From NCBI GenBank assembly GCA_963729605.1, contig CAVSNY010000006.1, forward strand, positions 64,001-128,000: 64,000 nucleotides of DNA. The letters run 5' to 3'. Of the stretch, positions 35,443 through 49,133 are shown piece after piece (the stretch's first letter is position 1; the number at the start of each line of letters is the position of its first letter). Under the pieces are notes generated by a model that saw only the letters and a list, made by a program, of their open reading frames with translations, was not told the origin of the DNA and searched no databases. The position numbers were made by a program, and so were the translations under genes. The DNA is from an uncultured Gammaproteobacteria bacterium. GTDB taxonomy: Bacteria > Pseudomonadota > Gammaproteobacteria > DRLM01.

Positions 35443-36657
35443 TCAACAACCACCGTCGAGCAATTCCACCCAATGCCGCACCTGTACCGCGGCCCCGCTT
35501 TGCAAATGCAGCTGACAGCCGATGTTGGCGGTGACGATGAGGTCGGGCGCGCCGGCTTGCAGCGCGGTGAGTTTATTGGCGAGTAATTGTTGCGAGAGTT
35601 CCGGCTGCAGGATCGAATAGGTGCCCGCCGAGCCACAGCAGAGATGTCCGTCCGCCACCGCGGTGAGTTGATACCCGCAACGGCGCAACACATCTTCGAC
35701 CACGCCGTTGACTTGTTGTCCATGCTGTAAAGTGCAGGGCGCGTGAAACGCCACCTTGCGGCCGCGGCCGTTCACGGTCAGCGTTTCCACCTGCTCACCC
35801 GCGAGAATCTCGCCGAGGTCTTTGGTCAAGGCGCTGATACGCGCGGCCTTGGCCGCGTAAACAGGATCATCGTGCAATAATGCGCCGTAATCCTTCACCA
35901 CCGCACCGCACCCGCTCGCCGTCATCACGATGGCCTCCGCGCCCGCCTCGACGTGGGGCCACCACGCATCGATGTTGCGGCGCATGAAATTGCGCGCATC
36001 GTCGTGCGCCGAGAGATGATGGCTGAGCGCGCCGCAACAGCCGGCATCCACGGCGCGGATCAAACTAATGCCCAGCTTGTCCAAGACCCGCGCCGCCGCC
36101 GCGTTGGTATTGGGCGCCGCGGCGGGTTGCACGCAGCCGTCGAGCACCAGCATCTTGCGCGCGTGGCGCGCGACCGGCCAAGCCGCCGCGGCCTGCACCG
36201 CCGGTATTTTCTTGCGCAAGGCCGCCGGCAAAAAAGGCCGCAGCGCACGGCCGATGCGCAACAGCGCGGCGAAACGTTGCGGATAAGGAATCAGCGCGCG
36301 CAACACGGCGCGCCGCGCGCGTGCGCCGAACGAGCGCGGTACCTTTTCCTCCACCATCGCCCGGCCGATGTCGACCAGCCGGCCGTAACGCACGCCCGAC
36401 GGACAGGTGGTTTCACAGGAGCGGCAGGTGAGACAGCGGTCGAGATGCAGCTGAGTCTTCTCCGTGACCGGGCCGCCCTCCAGCACCTGCTTGATGAGAT
36501 AGATGCGGCCGCGCGGACTATCCAGTTCATCGCCGAGCAATTGATAAGTGGGACAGGTGGCGGTGCAGAAACCGCAATGCACGCAGGAACGCAGGATGGC
36601 ATCCGCCTCCCGGCCTTCGGGCGTGTCTTTTACCGCATCGCTGAGTGACGTCTGCAT
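35443..36657 (-). CDS. glcF: glycolate oxidase/dehydrogenase Fe-S subunit
   Basis: CVHCGFC.ATCPTY, DSPRGRI, CLTCRSCETTCPSGV, CCG domains. Confidence 0.95.
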   Translation of the reverse strand: MQTSLSDAVKDTPEGREADAILRSCVHCGFCTATCPTYQLLGDELDSPRGRIYLIKQVLEGGPVTEKTQLHLDRCLTCRSCETTCPSGVRYGRLVDIGRAMVEEKVPRSFGARARRAVLRALIPYPQRFAALLRIGRALRPFLPAALRKKIPAVQAAAAWPVARHARKMLVLDGCVQPAAAPNTNAAAARVLDKLGISLIRAVDAGCCGALSHHLSAHDDARNFMRRNIDAWWPHVEAGAEAIVMTASGCGAVVKDYGALLHDDPVYAAKAARISALTKDLGEILAGEQVETLTVNGRGRKVAFHAPCTLQHGQQVNGVVEDVLRRCGYQLTAVADGHLCCGSAGTYSILQPELSQQLLANKLTALQAGAPDLIVTANIGCQLHLQSGAAVQVRHWVELLDGGC

Positions 36658-36692
36658 AATTTAAGCTTTACACGATCGCTAATGACTGGTGA

Positions 36693-37745
36693 TTACAACG
36701 CCGCATACATCCGCCCGCGATTGAATATCCCTTTGGGGTCGAAGGCCTGCTTCACCCGTTGCTGCAAGGTCAGCAGCGCGGGCGGCAAGGGATGGAAACG
36801 TTCATCGCCCGCACCGCCGCGAAACAACAGCGCATGGCCGCCGGCCTGTTCAGCGGCCTTGCGCACAGTAGCGGCGTCGGCCGCGGTTTTCAACCAACGC
36901 AGCGCTCCGCCCCACTCCAGCAGCCAGTCACCGGCGAGGGCCAGCGGCGGCGTCGCGGGCGGCACCGATAGCCGCCACAGCAGCGTAGCATCATCGAAAA
37001 ACGCATGGCGCTGCTCGCGCACCCGTTGCCAGAACTCGGCGGCGTCATCGACGATCTCGCCGCCGATCTGCCGGTGCGCACTCTCGACCGCCGACGCGGC
37101 GCCCGACAGCCGCACGTACAACACACCGGCGGCCACACAGGTCGCCGAGACCGGCAGCGGCCGCCCCGCCCAGCGATTCATCTGCGCGATCGCGTCGACG
37201 CCGGGCAGCGCGAGGGTGAGCTCGTACGCGGGCCGCGGCAATACTTTCAAGCTCACATCGAGGATCACGCCGAGCGTGCCCAGCGCACCCGTCATCAGCC
37301 GCGACACATCATAACCCGCGACGTTCTTCATCACCTCGCCGCCGAAATGCAGCACCTCACCGCGGCCGTTGATGATGGCCATTCCCAGCACGAAATCGCG
37401 CGCCGCGCCCGCATACGCGCGCCGCGGCCCCGACAGACCGCAGGCGATGGTCCCGCCCAGCGTCGCCGCGTCGCCGTAATGCGGCGGCTCGAAGGCGAGG
37501 ATCTGCTTGTGCTCTTCCAGCGCGGCCTCGATCTCGCGCAGCGGCGTGCCCGCGCGCGCCGTGAGCACAAGCTCGGTCGGCTGATAATGGACGATGCCGC
37601 GATGACCCGTCACATCGAGCGGCTCGCCTTCTGCCGCGCTGCCGAGAAAGGCCTTCGTCCCGCCGCCAACGATGCGCAGCGGCGCCGCGCGCGCGAGCGC
37701 ATCGCGCACCTGCGTCTCAAGCTGGGAGGTCAAATCCTTGTACAT
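36693..37745 (-). CDS. glcE: glycolate oxidase FAD-binding subunit
   Basis: GGGTK, YQPTELV.TARAGT, SGPRR, GGEVMKNVAGYDV, FDP.GIFN.GR. Confidence 0.95.
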   Translation of the reverse strand: MYKDLTSQLETQVRDALARAAPLRIVGGGTKAFLGSAAEGEPLDVTGHRGIVHYQPTELVLTARAGTPLREIEAALEEHKQILAFEPPHYGDAATLGGTIACGLSGPRRAYAGAARDFVLGMAIINGRGEVLHFGGEVMKNVAGYDVSRLMTGALGTLGVILDVSLKVLPRPAYELTLALPGVDAIAQMNRWAGRPLPVSATCVAAGVLYVRLSGAASAVESAHRQIGGEIVDDAAEFWQRVREQRHAFFDDATLLWRLSVPPATPPLALAGDWLLEWGGALRWLKTAADAATVRKAAEQAGGHALLFRGGAGDERFHPLPPALLTLQQRVKQAFDPKGIFNRGRMYAAL

Positions 37746-37774
37746 GAGCACACAGCAGGACGTGCGATCCACAT

Positions 37775-38085
37775 CCCCCGTAGACGCAGCCGAGCATCGC
37801 AGATCAGGAGAGAACAGGCCCGCAGGGGCGCGGCAAGGATGCCGCGCGTTTTCCGACAGGCCAGGGAGGGCCTGTCGGAAAACCCCTCTCCTGATCGAGA
37901 AGCGCAGGGTACCCGCAGGGCAAGTCTCCGGGCGGCCTTTCTTTTGGTTACTTTTCTTTGGCCGCGCAAAGAAAAGTAACTCGCCCGCGGTGCGAGAACC
38001 GCATTAAATAATGCCTTCTGGTCAACGTTTTTTGGGGACGCAAAGAAAAGCAGATCGCTCGCGGTGCGAACGGCGTAGTCGAGAA
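37775..38085. repeat. multi-hairpin intergenic element (MITE-like) between glcD and glcE
   Basis: Nested inverted repeats including TTTTCCGACAGGCC/GGCCTGTCGGAAAA and GTTACTTTTCTTTG/CAAAGAAAAGTAAC. Confidence 0.7.
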
Positions 38086-38106
38086 TACGTTTACATAGCG
38101 CTTGCA

Positions 38107-39600
38107 TCAAAATCTATCCAACTCCGGAAAGCGTACCTGCCCGGCATGCACATGCATCGCCCCGAACTCCGCGCAGCGATGCAGCGTCGGCACCGCCTTG
38201 CCCGGATTCAGCAAGCCCGCCGGGTCGAACGCCGCTTTGATCGCGTGAAATTGCTGCAACTCCGCCGGCCGGAACTGCACGCACATCTGATCGATCTTCT
38301 CCATGCCGACGCCGTGCTCGCCGGTGATCGTGCCGCCGACCGCGACGCAGAGCTCCAGTATCTTGCCGCCGAATTCCTCTGTGCGTTGCAGCTCGCCCGG
38401 CTTGTTGGCGTCGTACAAGATCAATGGATGCAGATTGCCGTCGCCGGCATGAAACACATTGGCGACCGGCAGATTGTATTCATGCGACAGCTCGGCGATG
38501 CGCCGCAACACCGCCGGCAAATGCCGACGGGGGATGGTGCCGTCCATGCAATAATAATCGGGCGCGAGGCGGCCCACCGCGGGAAACGCCGCCTTGCGGC
38601 CTTTCCACAACATGGCGCGTTCGTGCTCGTCGCGCGCCGTGCGCACTTCCACCGCGCCACACAGCGCGAGAATGTCGTGGATGTGCATGATGTGCTCGGA
38701 CACCTCTTCATTGGTCCCGTCGACCTCGCACAGCAGAATCGCCTCGGCGTTGAGCGGGTATCCGGCATGTACGAAATCCTCGGCGGCCTTGATCGCGAGC
38801 CGATCCATCATCTCGAGGCCAGCCGGGATGATGCCCGCGGCGATGATCTCGCCCACCGCCGCGCCCGCCTTCACGACGTCGTCGAAGGCCGCGAGCACGA
38901 CCTGCGCGCGTTCGGGCAGCGGCAGCAGCTTCACCGTCACCTCGACGATGACGCCGAGCATGCCCTCCGAGCCGTGGAACAACGCGAGCAAGTCATAACC
39001 CGGCGCATCGAGTGCGTCGCCGCCGAGGGTCAGCCGCTCGCCCTCGGCGGTGACGATCTCGAGCTTCAGCACATTGTGCACGGTGAGCCCGTATTTGAGG
39101 CAATGCACGCCGCCCGAGTTCTCGGCGACGTTGCCGCCGATGGTGCAGGCGATCTGCGACGAGGGATCGGGCGCGTAATAAAGGCCGTGCGGCGCCGCGG
39201 CCTGCGAGATCGCGAGATTGCGCACGCCGGGCTGTACGCGCGCGGTGCGGTTGAGCGGATCGATCGCGAGGATGGATTTGAACTTGGCGAGGCTCAGCAC
39301 CACACCGTGCTCGTGCGGCAACGCGCCGCCCGACAGGCCGGTGCCGGCGCCGCGCGCCACCACCGGCACGCCGCGGGCGTGACAGAGCCGCATCACGGCC
39401 TGCACCTGTTCGATCGTGCTCGGCAGCACGACGATCATGGGCAAACGGCGATAGGCCGAGAGGCCGTCGCATTCGTAGGGACGCAGGTCTTCCTCGTCGC
39501 AGAGCACGGCCTCGCGCGGCAGCAATGCGCGCAGCGCCGCCAGCAACGCATCCTTCTCGGCGCCCGTGTATTTCACCGTCGGCTGTTCATGCATGCTCAT
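38107..39600 (-). CDS. glcD: glycolate oxidase subunit D
   Basis: YECDGL, RGAGTGLSGG, YAPDPSSQ.ACTIGGN.AENSGG.HCLKYG, HAGDGNLHP, GEHGVG. Confidence 0.96.
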   Translation of the reverse strand: MSMHEQPTVKYTGAEKDALLAALRALLPREAVLCDEEDLRPYECDGLSAYRRLPMIVVLPSTIEQVQAVMRLCHARGVPVVARGAGTGLSGGALPHEHGVVLSLAKFKSILAIDPLNRTARVQPGVRNLAISQAAAPHGLYYAPDPSSQIACTIGGNVAENSGGVHCLKYGLTVHNVLKLEIVTAEGERLTLGGDALDAPGYDLLALFHGSEGMLGVIVEVTVKLLPLPERAQVVLAAFDDVVKAGAAVGEIIAAGIIPAGLEMMDRLAIKAAEDFVHAGYPLNAEAILLCEVDGTNEEVSEHIMHIHDILALCGAVEVRTARDEHERAMLWKGRKAAFPAVGRLAPDYYCMDGTIPRRHLPAVLRRIAELSHEYNLPVANVFHAGDGNLHPLILYDANKPGELQRTEEFGGKILELCVAVGGTITGEHGVGMEKIDQMCVQFRPAELQQFHAIKAAFDPAGLLNPGKAVPTLHRCAEFGAMHVHAGQVRFPELDRF

Positions 39601-39686
39601 CTATCGCGCACTTTAAAGATCGGCATTGGACGCATTATGCCTCAGCCGCCGCATCGGCGCAGCGTGAAAGGTCCGCGGCCGGCGGT

Positions 39687-41012
39687 TCACCGCGGCGGCC
39701 GCAGCCGCCGGAACACCGTCGCGAGTGCCTGCTCGTCGCCGACGTTGCCCGGAAAGATCACGACCGGCATGTCGGGAAACCGCGGGTGATCCGCCGGGCA
39801 GCGCACCACCGAGCAGCCCGCGAGGATCTGGCCGAGCACGCGCGCGCTCTTGAGCGCGAGGCCGCTGCTCAGCACGTCGTTCGAAGTGATGCCGCCCTTG
39901 CTGATCAAAAAACCGAGCTCGGCCGGCAGCGCGCGCACGACGTCCATCAAAAAGGCCGAGACGCGTTCGCCGAACGCGAGACGCGTCTCCGTATCGGCGA
40001 AGCGCATTTCGGTGCGGCTGGTGTAGATCACGGGCGTAAGATCGGAACGATGCGCCTCCGCCGCGGCCTGTTCGACCTGCCGCAACAGGGCCGTGCGCTC
40101 GCCGTCGATGCGCGCGACGTCGATCTCGATCGGCACGGCGTCCGGCTCCTTCAGCAACTGTTCCAACTGCAAGGTGCTCTTGCGCACATGCGAGCCGACG
40201 ACGACCGCACCCGCGCGGCCGCCGCGCACGTAGTTCGCCATGGCCTCGGCGGCGACCGGCTGCGGCGGCAGCGCCGCGAGCGCGGTGAGCAGGCTCGCGG
40301 CGCTGCGGAACAAGAAGCGCTTGCCCTCGGCCGCGGCGCGTTTGATCTCGGCGGCGAAGTGGTCGAGATCGGCCTGGCGTTCGGCGTCGACCACGCCGCA
40401 GCGGTTGCCGTGCAATTGCAGCAGCCGCGGCAACAGCCCGCCGCGCACGTCGGCCAGCAGAAAACGTTCGACGTCCTGCGCGGCGATGCGGCCGCGGGTC
40501 TTTTCTTCGACGTAGGCCGGCAGATAGCTCGTGGTGTAGCCGAACACCGAGTCGCGCGCGAACTCGGTCTCGTGGGTCGGCACCGGGCGGCCATCGACGA
40601 TCAAATAGTGAATGCTGTCGCGGGTGATACGGCCGCCTTCGAAAAACGCCGGCACCAGGAAGTGCGCGTCGAAGGGGCCGAGCTCCTCGGCAATCACATC
40701 GGTCTCGACCGGATAATGGCCACGCAAGGTCGAATCGGAACGGCTCACCAGCACGGGATTGATCGCGCGGCCCTCACCGCGCAAGCCATCGAGCGCGGTC
40801 TTGAGATTGCGGCACACCTCGCGCGTCACCGCCGCCGCGCGCGGCGCATCCATGCCGCGGGTGTTGGTGAGCACGAAGAACAGCGGCGCGGCGTCGAGCA
40901 AGGCCGCCCGCAGCGTGGCCACGTCCCAGCGCGTCAGCAGCAGGCAGCCGTGTACGGTCTGCGAGCCGGTCGGGTCGTCATCGAGGACGATGATCTTTGT
41001 TTGTTCGCTCAT
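39687..41012 (-). CDS. DUF1537 four-carbon acid-sugar kinase family protein
   Basis: KIIVLDDDPTGSQTVH, SRSDSTLRGH, PAFFEGGR.T, VGSH, KGGITS.D, FPGNVG. Confidence 0.9.
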   Translation of the reverse strand: MSEQTKIIVLDDDPTGSQTVHGCLLLTRWDVATLRAALLDAAPLFFVLTNTRGMDAPRAAAVTREVCRNLKTALDGLRGEGRAINPVLVSRSDSTLRGHYPVETDVIAEELGPFDAHFLVPAFFEGGRITRDSIHYLIVDGRPVPTHETEFARDSVFGYTTSYLPAYVEEKTRGRIAAQDVERFLLADVRGGLLPRLLQLHGNRCGVVDAERQADLDHFAAEIKRAAAEGKRFLFRSAASLLTALAALPPQPVAAEAMANYVRGGRAGAVVVGSHVRKSTLQLEQLLKEPDAVPIEIDVARIDGERTALLRQVEQAAAEAHRSDLTPVIYTSRTEMRFADTETRLAFGERVSAFLMDVVRALPAELGFLISKGGITSNDVLSSGLALKSARVLGQILAGCSVVRCPADHPRFPDMPVVIFPGNVGDEQALATVFRRLRPPR

Positions 41013-41034
41013 GGATAAATCACTCTTCTCCAAC

Positions 41035-41223
41035 TCCCCCCGCTCCCGCGGGCGGGGAGAGGGGCGGGGTGAGGGTTCCGAAAGAATCTTCACTGCGCGA
41101 GGAGCACCATTTCTTTTCCGTCCCTCACCCGGCCCTGCGGGCCACCCTCTCCCGCCCGCGGGAGAGGGGCAGCGCGATAGCGGTGTGCCCTCTTTAGCTA
41201 CCCTCTTCCGCGTGCGGGAGAGT
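41035..41223. repeat. cluster of BoxC-like palindromic repeats
   Basis: CGGGGAGAGGGGCGGGGTGAGGG (reverse), CCCTCACCCGG..CCCTCTCCCGCCCGCGGGAGAGGGG, CCCTCTTCCGCGTGCGGGAGAG. Confidence 0.75.
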
Positions 41224-41283
41224 GAAAAGCAATGCAGCGTTGGGTACGTTCACAAACATGAACCCAAGCCCTTTGGCTCGAGC

Positions 41284-43512
41284 TCAACCGCGCCCCATCA
41301 AGCCCTGCACGCGCGCCGTCATGGCCTCGGCGGTGATGCCGTTGAAGGCCATGATCTCGCCGGGCGAGGCCGTGGTCTCGCCGCGCTGCCAGCACACCAC
41401 GTCGCGGCGCGGCGCGCGCGTGCGCAGCAACACCGGTTCGAGCGAGGCGCTGGGGCCGCCGCTCACCGCGAGCAACGCATCGCCGTCGAATAGCGCGTTG
41501 AACTGATCGTCATCCATGAATTCATTATCGGGTTCGGACACGGTGTTCCACGCGACGTCGGTGGGACGATACAGACGGCGCGGATTCACCACCGCGACGA
41601 TGCGCACGCGATAGCCGGCCTGCTCCAATTGCACCTTGGCCTCGAACACCGGCAGCAGCACCATGTCGCCGGTCACCGCGAGCACCACGCTGCCGCGCGT
41701 GCCGCTGGTGCTTTCGTACAACATGATCGCGCCGCGCTCGACGGCCTGCTCGCCCTGCGCCAGCGTGGTGTAGACCGGCAGCGGACTCTTCGAGGCGATG
41801 ATCACCACGCCTTTGTTGTAGCTGTTGGTGCCCCATTCGAACGCGGCCTGGATCATATTGGCGTCGACCGGGAACAGCGGATAGACGTTGCCGTTGCGCA
41901 TCATGGCCGCGAAATAGTTTTCGATCTCGGGGCGCTGATGGGTCCAGCCGTTGCGGCCCTGCTCGAGCGCGCCGGCCGTGAACATGCAGACGATGGACGG
42001 CGTCCGGCGGCGCAGCTCGGCCATGGCCTGGGTCACCGTTTGAATGATGGGCCAGCCGTTGATCGCGAAGCTCTCGTACGACAGCCACAGCGCCCGCGAG
42101 CCGAACAGCGCGAGGCCGGCGGCGAGACCCGCGCAGGCATCCTCGTTGAGCGGCTCGTAGACCTGGCCCGCGGCGCTCTGATTGTAGAGCTCGTCATTGG
42201 TCGGGTGGCGGATCTTGAGCGCGTCGTTGATGTTCTTCATGCCCGAGGCCTCGTTGCCGTCGGCGTTGGTGACGACGTAGCGCGGATCGCGCCGGCCCAC
42301 CTCGGCCACCAGCGCGCCCATCGCGGTGGATGGCACGGCCTTGTCGCCGAGCGCGTATTCGAGCGCGGGCAGCGTGCCGAGCGGTGCGATGTCGAGCATG
42401 TGTTCAGTCACCGAGGTCTTCACCGCGGGGCCGCCGCCCGCGCGGCGGAAGTTGTCGCGCACGATACTCCACGCTTGCGGCGGCAGGGCGCGGCGTTGCA
42501 GGCCGTCGATGATGTGCTGCTTGTCGAGCGTGTCGGCCGGATAGAGGTTGTGCGACTTCGCGCCCAGCGCATGCACACCCGCGCCTTTGAGCTGCTTGAT
42601 GATGAAGCAGGTCAGCGTGCCGCCGAGCGCCGACTTCGCCGCGCGGTCCATGCCGCGCAGCACCGCGGCCGTGAAGGCCAGACGCTGCGGCAGCGAGAAG
42701 CGCGTGCTGTCGACGTACGCGCCCTGCTGGCCGCTGTCGTCGTAGGTCTTGGCATCGACCAGAATCACTTCTTTGAAACCGTGGCCGCGCCAGTAGGCGA
42801 TCATCTCGTCGTCGCTCATGGTCGAGACCATGGAGTGATGTTCCTGGCTGTAGCCGTTCCAGATCAAGGTCGGCAGGAAATTGGTGGCGCGCGGATACGC
42901 GGTGTTGAAGTGCATCATCGCCGACAAAATATAGGGCTCGCCCATGCCGCCGTCGCCGAGCGTGAACGGGAATAACGTGCCCGGGTGCAACAGCGCGCCG
43001 GCCATCGCGAAGTGCTGGCCCTGGCCGAGCGGCCCCGCGGGCGCGAGGATGCCGGGGATCGCGCCCGACAGATGGCCGAGCAGGCCGTGTTTCTCGCGGA
43101 AGCGGTCGCGGAGCTGTTGCACGGTCTTGATGCCCATCGCCTCCAGCGAGGTGTCGAGGAACATGGCGCTGTAGAAACCCGGCGCGTGATGACCGACCTC
43201 GGTGACGATGTTGGTGTGGCCCAGCATCACCAGCGCGGCATAGGCCTCGGCGCTGCTCGCGAAGCCGCCCGGGTGGCCCGAGGCCTTCGCGCCACAGACT
43301 TGCAGCGTGAGATAGCGCAGGGCGTCGGCGCCGAGCAGGGTCTGATAAATCGCGCGCGGGTCGGCGGTGTCGGCGATCGCGGTCGCACCCTCGCCGATCA
43401 CGGCGCCGTCGGCGTGCCGGCCATGGTCCGGCCAGGGCTCGCCGAAATACTGGATACCCGCGCAAAAATCGGGCGCGGCGGTGGCAAGAATCTCGGTAGT
43501 GGCGCGGCTCAT
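41284..43512 (-). CDS. ThDP-dependent phosphoketolase/transketolase-like enzyme (742 aa)
   Basis: SGHPGG, GHHAPG, GPLGQG, ThDP motif GDGG..E...WN, EPLNE, SYESFA, EQGRNGWTHQ; start MSRATT with SD AGGAG. Confidence 0.85.
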   Translation of the reverse strand: MSRATTEILATAAPDFCAGIQYFGEPWPDHGRHADGAVIGEGATAIADTADPRAIYQTLLGADALRYLTLQVCGAKASGHPGGFASSAEAYAALVMLGHTNIVTEVGHHAPGFYSAMFLDTSLEAMGIKTVQQLRDRFREKHGLLGHLSGAIPGILAPAGPLGQGQHFAMAGALLHPGTLFPFTLGDGGMGEPYILSAMMHFNTAYPRATNFLPTLIWNGYSQEHHSMVSTMSDDEMIAYWRGHGFKEVILVDAKTYDDSGQQGAYVDSTRFSLPQRLAFTAAVLRGMDRAAKSALGGTLTCFIIKQLKGAGVHALGAKSHNLYPADTLDKQHIIDGLQRRALPPQAWSIVRDNFRRAGGGPAVKTSVTEHMLDIAPLGTLPALEYALGDKAVPSTAMGALVAEVGRRDPRYVVTNADGNEASGMKNINDALKIRHPTNDELYNQSAAGQVYEPLNEDACAGLAAGLALFGSRALWLSYESFAINGWPIIQTVTQAMAELRRRTPSIVCMFTAGALEQGRNGWTHQRPEIENYFAAMMRNGNVYPLFPVDANMIQAAFEWGTNSYNKGVVIIASKSPLPVYTTLAQGEQAVERGAIMLYESTSGTRGSVVLAVTGDMVLLPVFEAKVQLEQAGYRVRIVAVVNPRRLYRPTDVAWNTVSEPDNEFMDDDQFNALFDGDALLAVSGGPSASLEPVLLRTRAPRRDVVCWQRGETTASPGEIMAFNGITAEAMTARVQGLMGRG

Positions 43513-43598
43513 GACTGCATCTCCTGGAAAATCGATCTCACCCCAGGGTGGGGATGGACACACCATACCCGGCGGCCGCAAATCCCACAATACAGAAT

Positions 43599-43619
43599 AT
43601 TTTTCATAATATGAAAAAT
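43599..43619. promoter_or_regulatory. IclR-type operator palindrome
   Basis: Perfect ATTTTTCATA-A-TATGAAAAAT between the divergent ThDP-enzyme and iclR genes; weaker similar site at about 43582-43598. Confidence 0.75.
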
Positions 43620-43636
43620 GCTTTATGCTAGACCCC

Positions 43637-44395
43637 ATGAAAGACCAAACCCCCTCGGGCATCCAAGTCATAGACCGCGCCGCTCGCCTGCTGGCGGCCA
43701 TCGCCGCCGCCGGCGGGCCGGTCTCCCTCAAGTATCTGTCGGCGGACACCGGCCTGCACCCCTCCACCACCTTCCGGATCCTGGCGGCCTTGCAGCAACA
43801 CGAACTGGTGGAAAAAGGCCCCGACGGCAATTACACCCTGGGCCGCGGCCTCGCCCGCCTCGCGCAACGGCTGCCCGCCCGCCCCGACCTGCGGGAATTG
43901 GCCAAACCCATCATGAATGAACTGCGTGACCGCACCGGAGAAACCGTCAATCTCACCGTGCGCGAAGGCGACGAAGTGGTGTATGTGGAACGCGTGTTGC
44001 CCAATCGCATGATGCGGGTCGAGCAGGTCATCGGCAGCCGCGCGCCGTTGCACGTCACCGCCGTGGGCAAACTCCTGCTCGGCGAAGACAGCGAAGAGGC
44101 CTGCCGCGATTACGCCCGCCGCACCGGCCTGCCGAAATACACCGCCAACACCCTGGTCAGCCAAAAGAGCCTGCTGGCCGACATCAAACAGTGCGTCGCC
44201 CGCGGTTATGCCCGGGATAACGAAGAGGCGGAGCTCGGCGTGGGCTGCGTCGGCGTGCTGGTACGCGACACCCGGGGCGAGGCGGTCGCCGGCTTATCCA
44301 TTTCCGCGCCGCGGGAGCGTTTAAAAGAGGATTGGATCCCTTTGCTGCAAACCGCCGGCAGGCGCTTGTCCCGTCATCTGGGTTATTCGGATTGA
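43637..44395 (+). CDS. IclR family transcriptional regulator
   Basis: IQVIDRAARLL, GLHPSTTFRIL HTH, TGETVNL, G.RAPLH.TAVGK, GYA.DNEE.E.GV.C. Confidence 0.95.
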   Translation: MKDQTPSGIQVIDRAARLLAAIAAAGGPVSLKYLSADTGLHPSTTFRILAALQQHELVEKGPDGNYTLGRGLARLAQRLPARPDLRELAKPIMNELRDRTGETVNLTVREGDEVVYVERVLPNRMMRVEQVIGSRAPLHVTAVGKLLLGEDSEEACRDYARRTGLPKYTANTLVSQKSLLADIKQCVARGYARDNEEAELGVGCVGVLVRDTRGEAVAGLSISAPRERLKEDWIPLLQTAGRRLSRHLGYSD

Positions 44396-46316: not shown

Positions 46317-47321
46317 ATGTTGAAAGGGATTTTCGCCGCCGCGTTGTGCCTGCTTTTCCTCAGTCAACCCAGCGGGGCGGCGACCACATTAAAAATCGCC
46401 ACCATCGCCCCCGACGGCACCAGCTGGATGCAGGCGCTGCGCAAAGGCGGGGACGACATCGCCAAACGCACCGAGGGCCGGGTGAAATTGCGTTTTTTCC
46501 CCGGCGGGGTGATGGGCAACGATAAAAGCGTATTGCGCAAAATCCGTCTCGGCCAATTACACGGCGGCGTGCTGGTGAGCGGCGGCCTCACCGAGGTCTA
46601 CCCCGATATCGCGCTGTACAATATTCCCTTCCTCTTCCGCTCCTATCAAGAAGTCGATTACGTGCGCGAACGCATGGACCCCTTGTTGTTACAGGGCCTG
46701 GCGGAGCGCGGCTTCGTCAGCTTCGGCTTCAGCGAGGGCGGCTTCGCTTATTTGATGTCCAATCAAGCGGTGCGCAGCCTCGACGATTTGAAAAGCAAAA
46801 AGGTCTGGGTGCCCGATGACGACCGCATCAGCCGTATCGCGATTGAATCGCTCGGCGTCACGCCCATCCCCTTGCCGCTCACCGATGTCCTGCCCAGCTT
46901 GCAGACCGGACTCATCGATACCATCGCCGGTTCGGCGATCGGCGTGGTCGCGCTGCAATGGCAGCCGCAGGTGAAGTACCTGGTGGATGAACCGCTGGTG
47001 TATCTCTACGCCACCATGGCGGTCGACCGCAAGGCCTTCGAGCGCGTCAGTGCCGCCGATCAAGCCATCGTGCGCGAAGTCATGAGCGGCGTGTTCCGTA
47101 AACTCGATCAACAAAACCGCAGCGACGACGCGGCCGCCCATCGAGCCTTGAAGACGCAGGGCATAAAATACGTGGCGCCCACGGCGGAGTCTCTGCAAAA
47201 CGAGGCGAAGATCCGCGCCGAAGTGGAACAGCGCCTGCTGCAACAACGCATTCTCTCGCCGGAACTGATGGAGAGTTTGAAGACCCATCTCAATAAACAG
47301 CGGCAGACGGCCGCACCCTGA
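46317..47321 (+). CDS. dctP: TRAP substrate-binding protein
   Basis: LKIATIAPDGTSW, FPGGVMG, LRKIR.GQL, LQTGLID. Confidence 0.92.
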   Translation: MLKGIFAAALCLLFLSQPSGAATTLKIATIAPDGTSWMQALRKGGDDIAKRTEGRVKLRFFPGGVMGNDKSVLRKIRLGQLHGGVLVSGGLTEVYPDIALYNIPFLFRSYQEVDYVRERMDPLLLQGLAERGFVSFGFSEGGFAYLMSNQAVRSLDDLKSKKVWVPDDDRISRIAIESLGVTPIPLPLTDVLPSLQTGLIDTIAGSAIGVVALQWQPQVKYLVDEPLVYLYATMAVDRKAFERVSAADQAIVREVMSGVFRKLDQQNRSDDAAAHRALKTQGIKYVAPTAESLQNEAKIRAEVEQRLLQQRILSPELMESLKTHLNKQRQTAAP

Positions 47322-47340
47322 AGCGGCGCCGCTAACGGCC

Positions 47341-47856
47341 ATGCCCAACACCCGTTCCCCCAGCAGTTGGTTGCAGCACGGTAAAAAAATCATCGCCCGT
47401 ATCGAAGACGGCGTGCTGGTTCTTTTGTTGACGGTGATGATAGGCACCGCCACCGCGCAGATCGTGCTGCGTAATGTCTGGGACAGCGGCCTGATATGGA
47501 GCGACCCGCTCACCAAGGTGCTGGTGTTGTGGATCGGCCTGGTGGGGGCGATGGTCGCCAGCCGCCAGAACAACCATATTCATATCGACGTGTTGTCGCG
47601 TTTCCTGCCGGCCCGCGCCAAGGCGGCGAGTGAAGCGCTCAATTCGCTGTTCGCCGCCGCGGTCTGCGGCGTGCTCGCTTATCACGCCGGGCGTCTGGTG
47701 CTGCTCGACAAAGAAGCGGCGACCGTCGCCTTCGGCACCGTGCCGACCTGGGTCTGCGAATTGATCATCCCCTTCGGTTTCGGCGTCATCGGTTTGCGTT
47801 ACGCCGTGCTGGCGCTGAGCGACGCCGTCAGTTTGATGACCGCGAAAAAATCATGA
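47341..47856 (+). CDS. dctQ: TRAP small permease
   Basis: Four TM helices, QIVLRN, LW...GA..A....HI.ID. Confidence 0.9.
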   Translation: MPNTRSPSSWLQHGKKIIARIEDGVLVLLLTVMIGTATAQIVLRNVWDSGLIWSDPLTKVLVLWIGLVGAMVASRQNNHIHIDVLSRFLPARAKAASEALNSLFAAAVCGVLAYHAGRLVLLDKEAATVAFGTVPTWVCELIIPFGFGVIGLRYAVLALSDAVSLMTAKKS

Positions 47857-49133
47857 TCGTCGCCGCCGCCCTGCTCCTCGTCCTGCTCGCCCTGCTCGGC
47901 GCGCCGCTGTTCGCGGTGATCGCCGGCGGCGCGCTGTTGGCGTTTTATCAAGCCGACACCGATCTCGCGGTGATCGCCGCGGAATTCTACCGGCTCGCCG
48001 AAATGCCCATGCTGGTCGCCATTCCGCTCTTCACCTTCGCCGGCTATTTGTTGAGCGAAAGCCAGGCGCCGGCGCGCCTGGTGAAACTGAGCCAGGCTTT
48101 GCTGGGCTGGCTGCCCGGCGGCCTCGCCGTGGTGGCCCTCGTCACCTGCGCGTTTTTCACCGCCTTCACCGGCGCCTCGGGCGTGACCATCGTCGCCCTC
48201 GGCGCCTTGCTGTTTCCGGCGCTGGTGCAGGCCGGCTATCCGGAGCGTTTCAGTCTCGGCCTGATCACCACGTCGGGCAGCCTCGGCATGTTGTTCGCGC
48301 CCGCCGTGCCCTTGATCCTCTACGCGGTAATCGCGCAGCAACTCAACGTCGGCCGCAGTTTTACCATCGACGAGATGTTCATCGCCGGACTGTTGCCGGG
48401 CCTGCTCATGCTGAGCCTGCTCGCCGCCTGGAGCCTGTGGGTCAACCGCCATCTGCCGCGCCATCCCGTATCTTGGCGCGAGGCGGGCGCCGCGCTTTAC
48501 GCCGCGCGTTGGGAACTGCCGCTGCCGTTGATCGTCTTGGGCGGTATCTATAGCGGTTATTTCGCGGTATCGGAAGCGGCGGCGGTCACCGCCCTCTATG
48601 TATTGATCGTGGAAGTGCTGGTCTATCGCGAGATCCCGCTCCGGAAACTGCCGCGCATCATGCGCGACGCCATGGTGCTGGTCGGCGCGTTGCTGATCAT
48701 TCTCGGCGTCTCGCTGGCCCTCACCAATTATTTCATCGACGCCGATATTCCGGCGCGGATCTTCGCCACGGTCAAACACTATGTGAGCGATCCGTTGACC
48801 TTTCTGCTGCTGCTGAATCTGCTGCTGCTGTGTCTGGGTATCTTGCACGACATCTCGGCGCTGGTGATCGTCGTGCCGTTATTATTGCCGGTGGCCGTCG
48901 CCTACGGCATCGATCCCGTCCACTTCGGCATCATCTTCATCGCCAATATGCAGATCGGTTATTTTTTCCCGCCGCTGGGCCTCAATCTCTTCATCGCCAG
49001 TTACCGCTTTAAAAAACCGGTGATGGAACTGGTCCGCGCCACCTTGCCGTTTCTGATCATCCTGCTCGGCAGCATATTCATCATCACCTATTGGCCCGCC
49101 TTGTCGCTGGCACTGACGAGCAAGGGATCTTGA
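47853..49133 (+). CDS. dctM: TRAP large permease
   Basis: AIPLFTFAG, GASG, GIDP.HFG, PP.G.NLF; ATGA overlap with dctQ. Confidence 0.93.
   Translation: MIVAAALLLVLLALLGAPLFAVIAGGALLAFYQADTDLAVIAAEFYRLAEMPMLVAIPLFTFAGYLLSESQAPARLVKLSQALLGWLPGGLAVVALVTCAFFTAFTGASGVTIVALGALLFPALVQAGYPERFSLGLITTSGSLGMLFAPAVPLILYAVIAQQLNVGRSFTIDEMFIAGLLPGLLMLSLLAAWSLWVNRHLPRHPVSWREAGAALYAARWELPLPLIVLGGIYSGYFAVSEAAAVTALYVLIVEVLVYREIPLRKLPRIMRDAMVLVGALLIILGVSLALTNYFIDADIPARIFATVKHYVSDPLTFLLLLNLLLLCLGILHDISALVIVVPLLLPVAVAYGIDPVHFGIIFIANMQIGYFFPPLGLNLFIASYRFKKPVMELVRATLPFLIILLGSIFIITYWPALSLALTSKGS

Follow-up and report, generated by a model that had tools for sequence, protein, structure and literature searches.

A conserved gene trio in Gammaproteobacteria, encoding an IclR-family regulator, a phosphoketolase-like ThDP enzyme and a DUF1537 kinase, works with a probability of roughly 0.7 in Calvin-cycle-linked glycolate/glyoxylate metabolism. 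Because the trio lies beside glycolate oxidase genes in Rubisco carriers, it probably recycles Rubisco-derived glycolate. If this is true, the glycolate wasted by Rubisco is probably recycled by a previously undescribed route; full-text searching of the literature found no description of the module.

The window, a 64,000-nt stretch of contig CAVSNY010000006.1 from an uncultured gammaproteobacterium, was examined with profile searches. All six genes and the palindrome were found where the preliminary description had placed them. The genes for the ThDP enzyme, the kinase and GlcD, GlcE and GlcF occupy the minus strand, and the IclR gene diverges from them on the plus strand (Table 1); the start sites of the ThDP gene and the kinase gene were corrected. 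For the ThDP gene, the most likely start codon is ATG 43512, which is preceded by GGAGAT and gives a protein of 742 aa; homologues of this protein are 721–747 aa long. The longer 848-aa open reading frame, extending to 43830, overlaps the IclR gene. For the kinase, 41015 is the most likely start, in agreement with the N-terminal consensus of its orthologues. The annotated flanks within the window contain CopCD, CysH and one TRAP transporter, which is located 2 kb from the module.

Table 1. Features of the module in the window and the matches or observations behind each assignment.
Feature	Position	Strand	Basis
IclR-family regulator	43625..44395	+	IclR_C 150 bits, HTH_IclR 53 bits (Pfam); ATG 43638 may be the true start
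Perfect 10+1+10 palindrome ATTTTTCATA-A-TATGAAAAAT	43599..43619	.	Read from sequence; presumed IclR operator
Phosphoketolase-like ThDP enzyme, 742 aa	41284..43512	-	Weak XFP 48 bits, XFP_N 35 bits, Transket_pyr 32 bits (Pfam)
12-pair hairpin, from the ThDP-gene stop codon onward	41259..41286	-	Terminator-like scan; T-run weak
DUF1537 (four-carbon acid-sugar) kinase, 442 aa	39687..41015	-	SBD_N 190 bits, NBD_C 131 bits (Pfam)
glcD, glycolate oxidase FAD subunit	38107..39600	-	NF008408 871 bits, slightly below the 897 cut-off
glcE	36693..37772	-	NF008439 530 bits vs 284 cut-off
glcF, Fe-S subunit	35443..36657	-	NF008434 685 bits vs 333 cut-off

A survey of homologous neighbourhoods favoured the grouping proposed in the preliminary description. 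The ThDP gene is adjoined by the IclR gene and by the kinase gene, each in 69 of the 69 loci whose flanks are long enough (for the divergent IclR orthologue, at least 900 nt upstream), and the trio often forms one operon with glcDEF. The 39 long loci, which extend at least 4.5 kb past the kinase, comprise 24 with the complete glcDEF set and 4 with part of it; glcD comes directly after the kinase in 21 of the 39, and a glc gene was seen in 14 of the 18 shorter loci. No glc gene lies within reach in 11 of the 39 long loci, which counts against the glycolate chain considered below. At two loci (L004 and L029), a co-oriented TRAP transporter separates the kinase from the glc genes, and organic-acid TRAP transporters occur in or beside the module at 9 of 80 loci. 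A class-V aminotransferase of the type present in the source genome adjoins the module in 5 loci, and no other gene family recurred in more than 6 loci.

Co-occurrence with Rubisco was also borne out. The ThDP gene is present in 39 genomes of an even sample of 400 from the class, and 36 of these carriers, spread over 26 families, are Rubisco-positive, the three exceptions being genomes that are 81–86% complete. None of the 199 high-quality Rubisco-negative genomes in this sample carries the gene. Rubisco was found in 44 of 50 carrier genomes, and GlcF in all 50 versus 54 of 80 Rubisco-positive non-carriers, the first 80 among 128 that are at least 97% complete. Thermithiobacillus tepidarius and Sulfuritortus calidifontis are examples of carriers that can be cultured. 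In the source genome (94.5% complete), Rubisco and PGP are each encoded by two genes, and tblastn identified the GlcDEF of the operon as the sole copy there.

The regulator shares a two-domain IclR architecture, a divergent gene and a palindromic putative operator with the glyoxylate-responsive regulators BhcR, AllR and IclR. Its top NCBIfam model is BhcR, but the score of 180 bits is under the cut-off of 350, and the putative operator consensus TTTCAYNNNRTGAAA is the module's own. The KdgR model gave 133 bits, and the matches to solved structures (PDB) were 1mkm with 104 bits, AllR (1tf1) with 97 bits and IclR (2o99) with 88 bits. The best family match to a glyoxylate-responsive regulator and the high rank of AllR and IclR among solved structures were counted toward the leading explanation. 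Of 75 homologous intergenic regions, 56 contain the TTTCAYNNNRTGAAA core with at most one mismatch, versus 0.23 expected from shuffles, so the palindrome is more than chance; the core lies a median of 77 nt from the start codon of the ThDP gene.

In the leading explanation, the operon would be glyoxylate-responsive and would serve Calvin-cycle autotrophs in the salvage of glycolate that comes from Rubisco and possibly also from import. GlcDEF oxidizes glycolate to glyoxylate, as follows from its equivalog-level family membership, and the ThDP enzyme would then add a C2 ketol unit from a ketose phosphate of the Calvin cycle, such as Xu5P, F6P or S7P, to glyoxylate to form 3-oxo-tetronate, a keto-acid sugar with four carbons. 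The DUF1537 kinase, whose family points to the reaction type and whose substrate is presumed, would phosphorylate the terminal hydroxyl of this product, and the resulting beta-keto-acid phosphate would lose CO2 to give DHAP, which would go back to the cycle. No dedicated decarboxylase for the last step is encoded; the reaction may be spontaneous or catalysed by the housekeeping class II aldolase, the nearest homologue of 2-OtnC-type decarboxylases. The IclR protein would bind the conserved palindrome, with glyoxylate or glycolate either releasing or activating it. The chemistry put forward in the preliminary description, namely ketol transfer to glyoxylate, phosphorylation and decarboxylation to DHAP, appears plausible, and we propose the whole chain from GlcDEF to DHAP under IclR control, as written, only tentatively. 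One CO2 would be lost per glycolate in this chain, which is worse than in the glycerate pathway.

The kinase had been regarded as kin to OtnK (3-oxo-tetronate kinase), and this assignment was rejected: its match to E. coli YgbK has an E-value of 1e-4 across 157 aa, versus 40% full-length identity to the 2-oxo-tetronate-kinase type. Outside the family, its closest relatives, with 36–41% full-length identity, are kinase domains that form fusions with L-threonate dehydrogenase-like, F_bP_aldolase-like or apionolactonase domains; in the kinase-F_bP_aldolase fusion P0399, the kinase portion matched at 40% identity with an E-value of 5e-91. By these alignments, the kinase belongs to a 2-oxo-tetronate-kinase-like branch. 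This placement counts against the ketol-transfer chain, since ketol transfer to glyoxylate yields the 3-oxo isomer. The sections of PMC12540250 and PMC12994016 on the fused-kinase branch describe oxo-tetronate kinases and the decarboxylation of their products to DHAP. The same sections outline the L-threonate/D-erythronate pathways (three-step with LtnD, 2-OtnK and 2-OtnC; four-step with OtnI, 3-OtnK and 3-OtnC), which the module resembles in that a DUF1537 kinase would act on a C4 keto-acid sugar before decarboxylation to DHAP, and in the 40% identity of its kinase to 2-OtnK-type kinase domains. It is unlike them in that an LtnD-like dehydrogenase, OtnI and either OtnC type are missing from the loci and the source genome, in having a ThDP enzyme and GlcDEF instead, and in being limited to Rubisco-bearing genomes (36/39 carriers).

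An unlikely alternative is that the operon encodes an oxidase, a kinase and a decarboxylase that together process a 2-hydroxy acid sugar, in the manner of the three-step L-threonate/D-erythronate route. In this scheme, an imported or by-product D-2-hydroxy acid (D-erythronate, D-threonate or D-glycerate) would be oxidized by GlcDEF to the 2-oxo acid and then phosphorylated by the 2-OtnK-like kinase, and the ThDP enzyme, taking the place of 2-OtnC, would decarboxylate the resulting phosphate to a triose phosphate or to a unit that can be transferred. In the cited sections of PMC12540250 and PMC12994016, the closest relatives of the kinase come after a 2-oxo-tetronate-making dehydrogenase and before a decarboxylase, and the operon would fill all three slots with none missing. 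The organic-acid TRAP transporters described above, including the one in the window, are consistent with import, and sugar acids are also sensed by IclR-family regulators, in line with the KdgR score. In the transketolase superfamily, 3-hydroxy-2-oxo acids serve as donors, which was also counted for this alternative. However, GlcE and GlcF score approximately two-fold above the glycolate-oxidase equivalog cut-offs, and GlcDEF is present as a sole copy in a genome with duplicate Rubisco and PGP genes. The long loci without a nearby glc gene count against this pathway as well, and sugar-acid catabolism would leave the restriction to Rubisco-positive genomes unexplained.

The preliminary description had noted none of the usual glyoxylate-consuming genes in the operon or the window. 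This held for the annotated flanks and, in a genome-level search of the source genome, for gcl, malate synthase, tartronate semialdehyde reductase (best match 61 bits versus a cut-off of 341) and oxc, but not for glyoxylate use as a whole: the genome has GcvP (glycine cleavage), a MOFRL glycerate kinase and a class-V aminotransferase, so a plant-like C2 cycle could take glyoxylate. The lack of OtnC was confirmed in the source genome and extended to the carriers, with 0 of 50 genomes above the cut-off; the source genome has no 2-OtnC-like paralogue either, its two PF01116 proteins being a canonical FBA and a degenerate copy. As supporting evidence, the absence of gcl (0/50 carriers) lost its weight and is uninformative because gcl is rare across the class sample (4/400). 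Malate synthase is not rarer among carriers (17/50) than among non-carriers (19/80), which does not bear out a module complementary to this enzyme. The known phosphoglycolate-salvage routes (C2 cycle, glycerate pathway, malate cycle and oxalyl-CoA route), as far as the relevant parts of PMC7486775 set them out, likewise have the oxidation of glycolate by GlcDEF as their starting point in Calvin-cycle autotrophs; the source genome differs in being without detected gcl, tsr, malate synthase and oxc, and the conserved partner genes of the module are part of none of these routes.

It is also quite improbable that glyoxylate is assimilated by other ThDP chemistry, in which it would be decarboxylated to hydroxymethyl-ThDP and then ligated to an acceptor, either glyoxylate to give tartronate semialdehyde, as by a non-homologous Gcl, or GAP to give a tetrose phosphate; the product or an isomer, e.g. 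hydroxypyruvate or glycerate, would then be the substrate of the kinase. The comparative support for such a scheme equals that of the leading explanation, and its carbon efficiency would be better, given the established stoichiometry of the glycerate pathway. The lack of gcl in the carriers and the source genome agrees with it but says little, as stated above. The missing tartronate semialdehyde reductase argues against it, no conserved reductase or isomerase gene is seen in the loci, and with GAP as the acceptor the invariant kinase would be without a role. Moreover, all active-site His residues that hold the dihydroxyethyl-ThDP intermediate (listed in PMC10547157) are kept in the ThDP enzyme, including the full set for the second hydroxyl, which a hydroxymethyl intermediate would presumably not need. 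The retention of these residues also speaks for the leading explanation.

Profile comparisons place the ThDP enzyme in an isolated sister family of phosphoketolase. It scored 103 bits against the NCBIfam phosphoketolase model with a cut-off of 777, is far under all NCBIfam phosphoketolase cut-offs and shares ~23% identity with canonical phosphoketolases. At 50% clustering, the family matched P0123 with 919 bits, followed by a wide gap to the next full-length relatives at no more than 94 bits, and orthologues from distant lineages are 70–90% identical. The family profile gave 120 bits to PDB phosphoketolases, consistent with the three-domain ThDP fold family of Xfp (xylulose-5-P/fructose-6-P phosphoketolase, e.g. 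PDB 3AHC), and at most 40 bits to solved transketolases. Transketolase nevertheless belongs to the same superfamily, and the ketol transfer proposed for the ThDP enzyme is transketolase chemistry. The GHPG of the enzyme resembles what we take to be the transketolase N-terminal motif, and its Tyr and Asn positions presumably hold other residues in transketolases.

In alignment to phosphoketolase (PK), the GDG...N Mg/ThDP motif, the Mg site and the ThDP-activating Glu are conserved, and equivalents of Xfp His64, His97, His142, His320, His553, Tyr501, Gln546 and Asn549 are all kept; Tyr479, Gln518, Asn521, His525 and Lys575 correspond to PK Tyr501, Gln546, Asn549, His553 and Lys605. Unlike phosphoketolases, the enzyme has GHPGG for GHWGT, Asn for Gln321 and Arg for His548, is ~50 residues shorter at the C-terminus, and is partnered by a DUF1537 kinase gene, with ackA absent from all 80 ThDP loci searched. 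The family-invariant Arg520, at the PK His548 position beside the acceptor-site Asn, could be a carboxylate binder. According to the portion of PMC11648648 concerned, acceptor binding in phosphoketolase is limited by Tyr501 and Asn549. Because these PK-type residues are kept, the enzyme may be an acetyl-phosphate-forming lyase and not a ketol transferase, and sequence alone does not decide between the two. That it is a true divergent phosphoketolase, turning Calvin-cycle ketose phosphates into acetyl-phosphate as carbon overflow or an acetyl-CoA source with the kinase and glcDEF merely co-regulated, is very unlikely: phosphoketolases are its closest solved and curated relatives, five active-site residues match and the public annotation reads 'phosphoketolase', but its score and identity are low, ackA is missing from the loci, the invariant kinase partner, GlcF link and IclR control would be left unexplained, and the source genome already has a second phosphoketolase-like gene that directly adjoins ackA.

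The five co-directional genes of the operon, which encode the ThDP enzyme, the DUF1537 kinase and the three glycolate oxidase subunits GlcD, GlcE and GlcF, lie on the minus strand, and the single plus-strand gene of the region encodes the divergent IclR regulator. GlcF and GlcE exceed the cut-offs of the NCBI glycolate-oxidase equivalog models about two-fold. The regulator carries the HTH_IclR and IclR_C domains of Pfam and its best NCBIfam model is BhcR, at 180 bits (cut-off 350). The genes that flank the operon in the window (CopC/CopD, CysH and a TRAP transporter) are unrelated to it.

Features of the operon and its surroundings, in coordinates of the window
Feature	Position	Strand	Description
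glcF	35443-36657	minus	NCBIfam glycolate-oxidase equivalog, 685 bits, cut-off 333
glcE	36693-37772	minus	NCBIfam glycolate-oxidase equivalog, 530 bits, cut-off 284
glcD-glcE spacer	37773-38106		~330 nt
glcD	38107-39600	minus	equivalog, 871 bits, marginally under cut-off of 897
DUF1537 kinase	likely start 41015	minus	next upstream of glcD; Pfam SBD_N 190 bits, NBD_C 131 bits
Hairpin	41259-41286		12 pairs, from the ThDP stop codon
ThDP enzyme	ATG 43512	minus	742 aa, first gene of the operon; Pfam XFP 48 bits, XFP_N 35 bits
Palindrome	43599-43619		between the ThDP and IclR starts
IclR regulator		plus	divergent
TRAP transporter	46317-49133		DctP, small subunit, DctM

The long ORF of the ThDP gene (848 aa) runs into the IclR gene, and we placed its start at the internal ATG because this codon is preceded by GGAGAT and yields a protein of the same length as the homologues. 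The start of the kinase was likewise placed at 41015. The palindrome between the two divergent starts reads ATTTTTCATA-A-TATGAAAAAT, and 56 of 75 intergenic regions contain its core TTTCAYNNNRTGAAA with no more than a single mismatch, where 0.23 would be expected. Within the operon, the glcD-glcE spacer holds two copies of a ~35-nt repeat (cgcaccgcg.gcga...cttttctttgcg) and short hairpins, and is possibly a REP- or MITE-like insertion; a 126-aa ORF across this spacer was treated as non-coding since no Pfam family matches it and direct repeats occur there. The hairpin starting at the ThDP stop codon lies in a spacer of ~270 nt ahead of the kinase start and might serve as an attenuator or influence processing or stability.

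To survey the locus, one genome per species was scanned, which gave 360 stretches encoding a relative; the best 80 of these 360 were fetched with flanks and their neighbours were called by tblastn with the proteins of the window. Among these best 80, the divergent IclR gene was present in 69/69 loci having at least 900 nt upstream, and the kinase gene lay directly downstream of the ThDP gene in 69/69 loci having at least 1.5 kb. The set of glcD, glcE and glcF was complete in 24 of the 39 loci with at least 4.5 kb past the kinase, partial in 4 and absent from 11, with glcD immediately after the kinase in 21 of the 39; a glc gene was also visible in 14 of 18 shorter loci. The linkage of the ThDP and kinase genes to glcDEF, which the preliminary description had proposed to survey, is conserved. 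Clustering of all ORFs of the loci yielded no further family in more than six loci, the family concerned being glcD fragments at contig ends, and a class-V aminotransferase was an occasional neighbour (5 loci). A public protein of 1191 aa (P0393) is an apparent ThDP-kinase fusion, but we read it as a frameshift read-through rather than a Rosetta-stone fusion: its ThDP match ends at residue 657 and an Arg/Gly-rich stretch replaces the last ~80 residues before the kinase begins, most likely through a frameshift or assembly error in the source contig.

Named carriers of the ThDP gene include Thermithiobacillus, Sulfuritortus, Sideroxydans, Gallionellaceae, Thiobacillus, Sedimenticola, Thiogranum, Acidihalobacter and Nitrotoga. 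In a class sample of 401 genomes drawn evenly, the gene (E <=1e-100) was present in 39 of the 400 genomes scored, across 26 families, over which the two-enzyme module is kept at 70-90% identity, and Rubisco (E <=1e-90) was present in 164 of 401. When the two tables were compared, 36 of the 39 carriers were Rubisco-positive and the remaining three were 81-86% complete; the module thus occurs in about one fifth (36/164) of the Rubisco-positive sampled genomes. All 35 high-quality carriers have Rubisco, so that none of the 199 high-quality Rubisco-negative genomes holds the ThDP gene, in agreement with the co-occurrence predicted beforehand. No P value is given because related genomes are not independent. 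In a set of 50 carrier genomes, mostly MAGs, Rubisco was detected in 44 and GlcF in all 50 (49 above the cut-off), and GlcF was detected in 54 of 80 Rubisco-positive non-carriers, which were the first, in table order, of 128 such genomes at least 97% complete. In view of these comparative data, the module very likely acts either after glycolate oxidation or jointly with it in Calvin-cycle autotrophs.

Homologues of the ThDP enzyme are publicly named 'phosphoketolase'. The enzyme clears only the domain thresholds of Pfam XFP and XFP_N, and it passes neither the best NCBIfam phosphoketolase model (103 bits, cut-off 777) nor the transketolase model TIGR00232 (32 bits, cut-off 682). Against solved structures in the PDB, the profile of its family reaches 120 bits with phosphoketolases and at most 40 bits with transketolases. 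A library of 1.8 billion proteins clustered at 50% returned just 385 matches, many of them fragments; one full-length relative scored 919 bits (56% identity), and after a gap came canonical phosphoketolases at 94 bits or less. We aligned the enzyme with five canonical phosphoketolases, taking the active-site residues from the list in the accessible part of PMC10547157. By that list, H80, H108, H147, H321 and E457 align with phosphoketolase His64, His97, His142, His320 and Glu479, and Y479, Q518, N521 and H525 with Tyr501, Gln546, Asn549 and His553. Eight of these nine residues do not vary among 25 family members; across alignment A1, H147 and Q518 are only near-invariant. The GDG...N motif for ThDP/Mg and the ThDP-activating Glu (E457) are kept as well. 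This conservation leaves the catalytic machinery for a dihydroxyethyl-ThDP intermediate intact. Where phosphoketolases have GHWGT, Gln321 and His548, the family invariantly shows GHPGG, Asn and Arg520. The residues are compatible both with dehydration of the dihydroxyethyl-ThDP intermediate, as in phosphoketolase, and with its transfer, as in transketolase.

The genomic context favours a product other than acetyl-phosphate, since no ackA homologue was found in any of the 80 loci and the other phosphoketolase-like gene of the window's own genome abuts ackA. This second divergent gene (L092:4323-7951; G000:C6 ~132.3-136.0 kb) lies some 4-8 kb, or more narrowly about 5.5-8 kb, past the window end. 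Its product of 827 aa reaches 140 bits with the NCBIfam phosphoketolase model (cut-off 777), shares 26% identity with the operon enzyme and is likewise remote from canonical phosphoketolases. The gene sits directly upstream of acetate kinase, as in the classical xfp-ackA pairing.

The SBD_N and NBD_C pair of the kinase is far over the cut-offs and identifies a DUF1537 four-carbon acid-sugar kinase, in which neither the N-terminal DDDPTGS motif nor the DSTLRG motif varies among 20 orthologues. The orthologues are ~75% identical over the lineages of the ThDP carriers and bear the public name 'four-carbon acid sugar kinase family protein'. The only NCBIfam match is D-threonate kinase (64 bits, cut-off 450), and the protein is barely alignable to any solved DUF1537 structure. 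The kinase had been likened to OtnK, a kinship that did not hold up: BLASTP against E. coli K-12 YgbK/OtnK gave just 30% identity over 157 aa (E 1e-4), which falls short of orthology. The nearest relatives outside the family, found in a search among longer proteins, are 36-41% identical over ~98% of the length. They are kinase domains fused to NAD_binding_2 dehydrogenase and F_bP_aldolase domains (plant LTD and bacterial two-domain forms) or, in others, to D-apionolactonase domains. The kinase shares 40% identity (E 5e-91) with the kinase portion of P0399, a kinase-F_bP_aldolase fusion protein, and 36-38% with plant LTD proteins. According to the accessible part of PMC12540250, the kinase domain of LTD shares 32% identity with Arthrobacter 2-OtnK and 18.5% with E. 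coli 3-OtnK, and 2-OtnC is an F_bP_aldolase-type enzyme; the same scheme appears in PMC12994016. The tie of our kinase to 2-OtnK passes through this 32% identity of LTD rather than a direct comparison with the Arthrobacter enzyme. Taken with the fused relatives, it would place the kinase in a branch whose members phosphorylate keto-acid sugars before a decarboxylation to DHAP.

A decarboxylase to follow this kinase was not found. As the preliminary description had noted for the window, OtnC is lacking: it was above the cut-off in 0/50 carrier genomes, and in the window's own genome the protein with a class II aldolase fold proved to be MtnB (176 bits), with a score of only 57 bits to OtnC. No 2-OtnC-like paralogue was found in that genome either, where the closest homologue of the aldolase-like part of P0399 is the canonical class IIB FBA (29% identity, E 1e-31). 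A degenerate class II aldolase-like protein of 373 aa (L094:1492-2613; G000:C2:190294-191415; PF01116 127 bits, under all NCBIfam cut-offs) was rejected as the missing enzyme because it resembles the 2-OtnC-like domain less than the canonical FBA does. In pairwise alignment it has AIQYAP where P0399 has HLDHAT, and the metal-binding H-x-D-H stretch seems to be lost. Its gene lies beside one for a NuoL/DabB-like membrane protein, ~10 kb from one Rubisco gene.

The window's own genome, an assembly of 3.48 Mb, carries two genes for the Rubisco large subunit, two phosphoglycolate phosphatase genes, GcvP and a MOFRL glycerate kinase; its single GlcDEF is the operon copy. The assembly is 94.5% complete, and our searches of it detected neither gcl nor malate synthase, nor a tartronate semialdehyde reductase, an oxalyl-CoA decarboxylase or a GlxK-type glycerate kinase. 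The accessible part of PMC7486775 lists four phosphoglycolate-salvage routes, three of which are accordingly missing from this genome; a C2 cycle is possible. The genome also encodes a class-V aminotransferase, a 74% identical orthologue of the module's neighbour in other loci. On one contig, ~16 kb separate the other Rubisco gene from the gene of a second GlcD-like FAD oxidase (G000:C6:391098-392411), which shares 38% identity with GlcD. Carriers had been expected to lack gcl and glcB, an expectation that lost its force: gcl is absent from all 50 carrier genomes but occurs in just 4 of 400 class-sample genomes, so we dropped it as an argument, and malate synthase occurs in 17/50 carriers versus 19/80 non-carriers, with no complementarity to the module.

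Our best explanation is that the ThDP enzyme would join glyoxylate and a ketol unit into 3-oxo-tetronate, whose phosphate would yield DHAP and CO2, as first proposed in the preliminary description. This chemistry fits the substrate class of the kinase family and its fate (DHAP and CO2), and also the intact machinery for dihydroxyethyl-ThDP, the lack of ackA in the loci and an acceptor-site Arg that could suit a carboxylate. Against it weigh the retained phosphoketolase-type Tyr and Asn, a kinase that would belong to the 2-oxo branch and not to the 3-oxo one, the missing decarboxylase and a C2 cycle that may operate. In the strongest rival reading, an oxidase, a kinase and a ThDP decarboxylase would act in turn on a C4 or C3 2-hydroxy acid; no step would then be missing, but neither the restriction to Rubisco-bearing genomes nor the single-copy GlcDEF is explained. 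We tentatively suggest, with a probability of roughly 0.3, that the module is a fifth natural phosphoglycolate-salvage route, in which a new ThDP enzyme, from a sister family of phosphoketolase, couples glyoxylate to a Calvin-cycle sugar phosphate and a new DUF1537 kinase drives the product to triose phosphate, and which was overlooked because the ThDP enzyme is annotated 'phosphoketolase'.

Little is known about the fate of 2-phosphoglycolate in chemolithoautotrophs. We found no description of the ThDP family or of the IclR-ThDP-kinase module in the full-text literature. The accessible text of PMC7486775 indicates that this salvage has been studied in depth in one organism and that several autotrophic orders lack malate synthase. 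If the module assimilates glyoxylate, it would explain how many sulfur-, iron- and nitrite-oxidising bacteria achieve this salvage, bring a new reaction into ThDP enzymology and offer photorespiration engineering a short bypass without ammonia release or reductant cost. Even if the chemistry differs, the label 'phosphoketolase', now borne by thousands of database entries, probably misstates their function.

A TRAP transporter was an occasional neighbour of the module (9 loci) and lies between the kinase and glc genes in two loci (L004 and L029). The TRAP transporter of the window is 2 kb from the IclR gene; another TRAP system, different from it and mutually orthologous among loci, follows the kinase in L004, L012, L029, L039 and L054. 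Glycolate or an acid sugar would be our guesses for the substrate.
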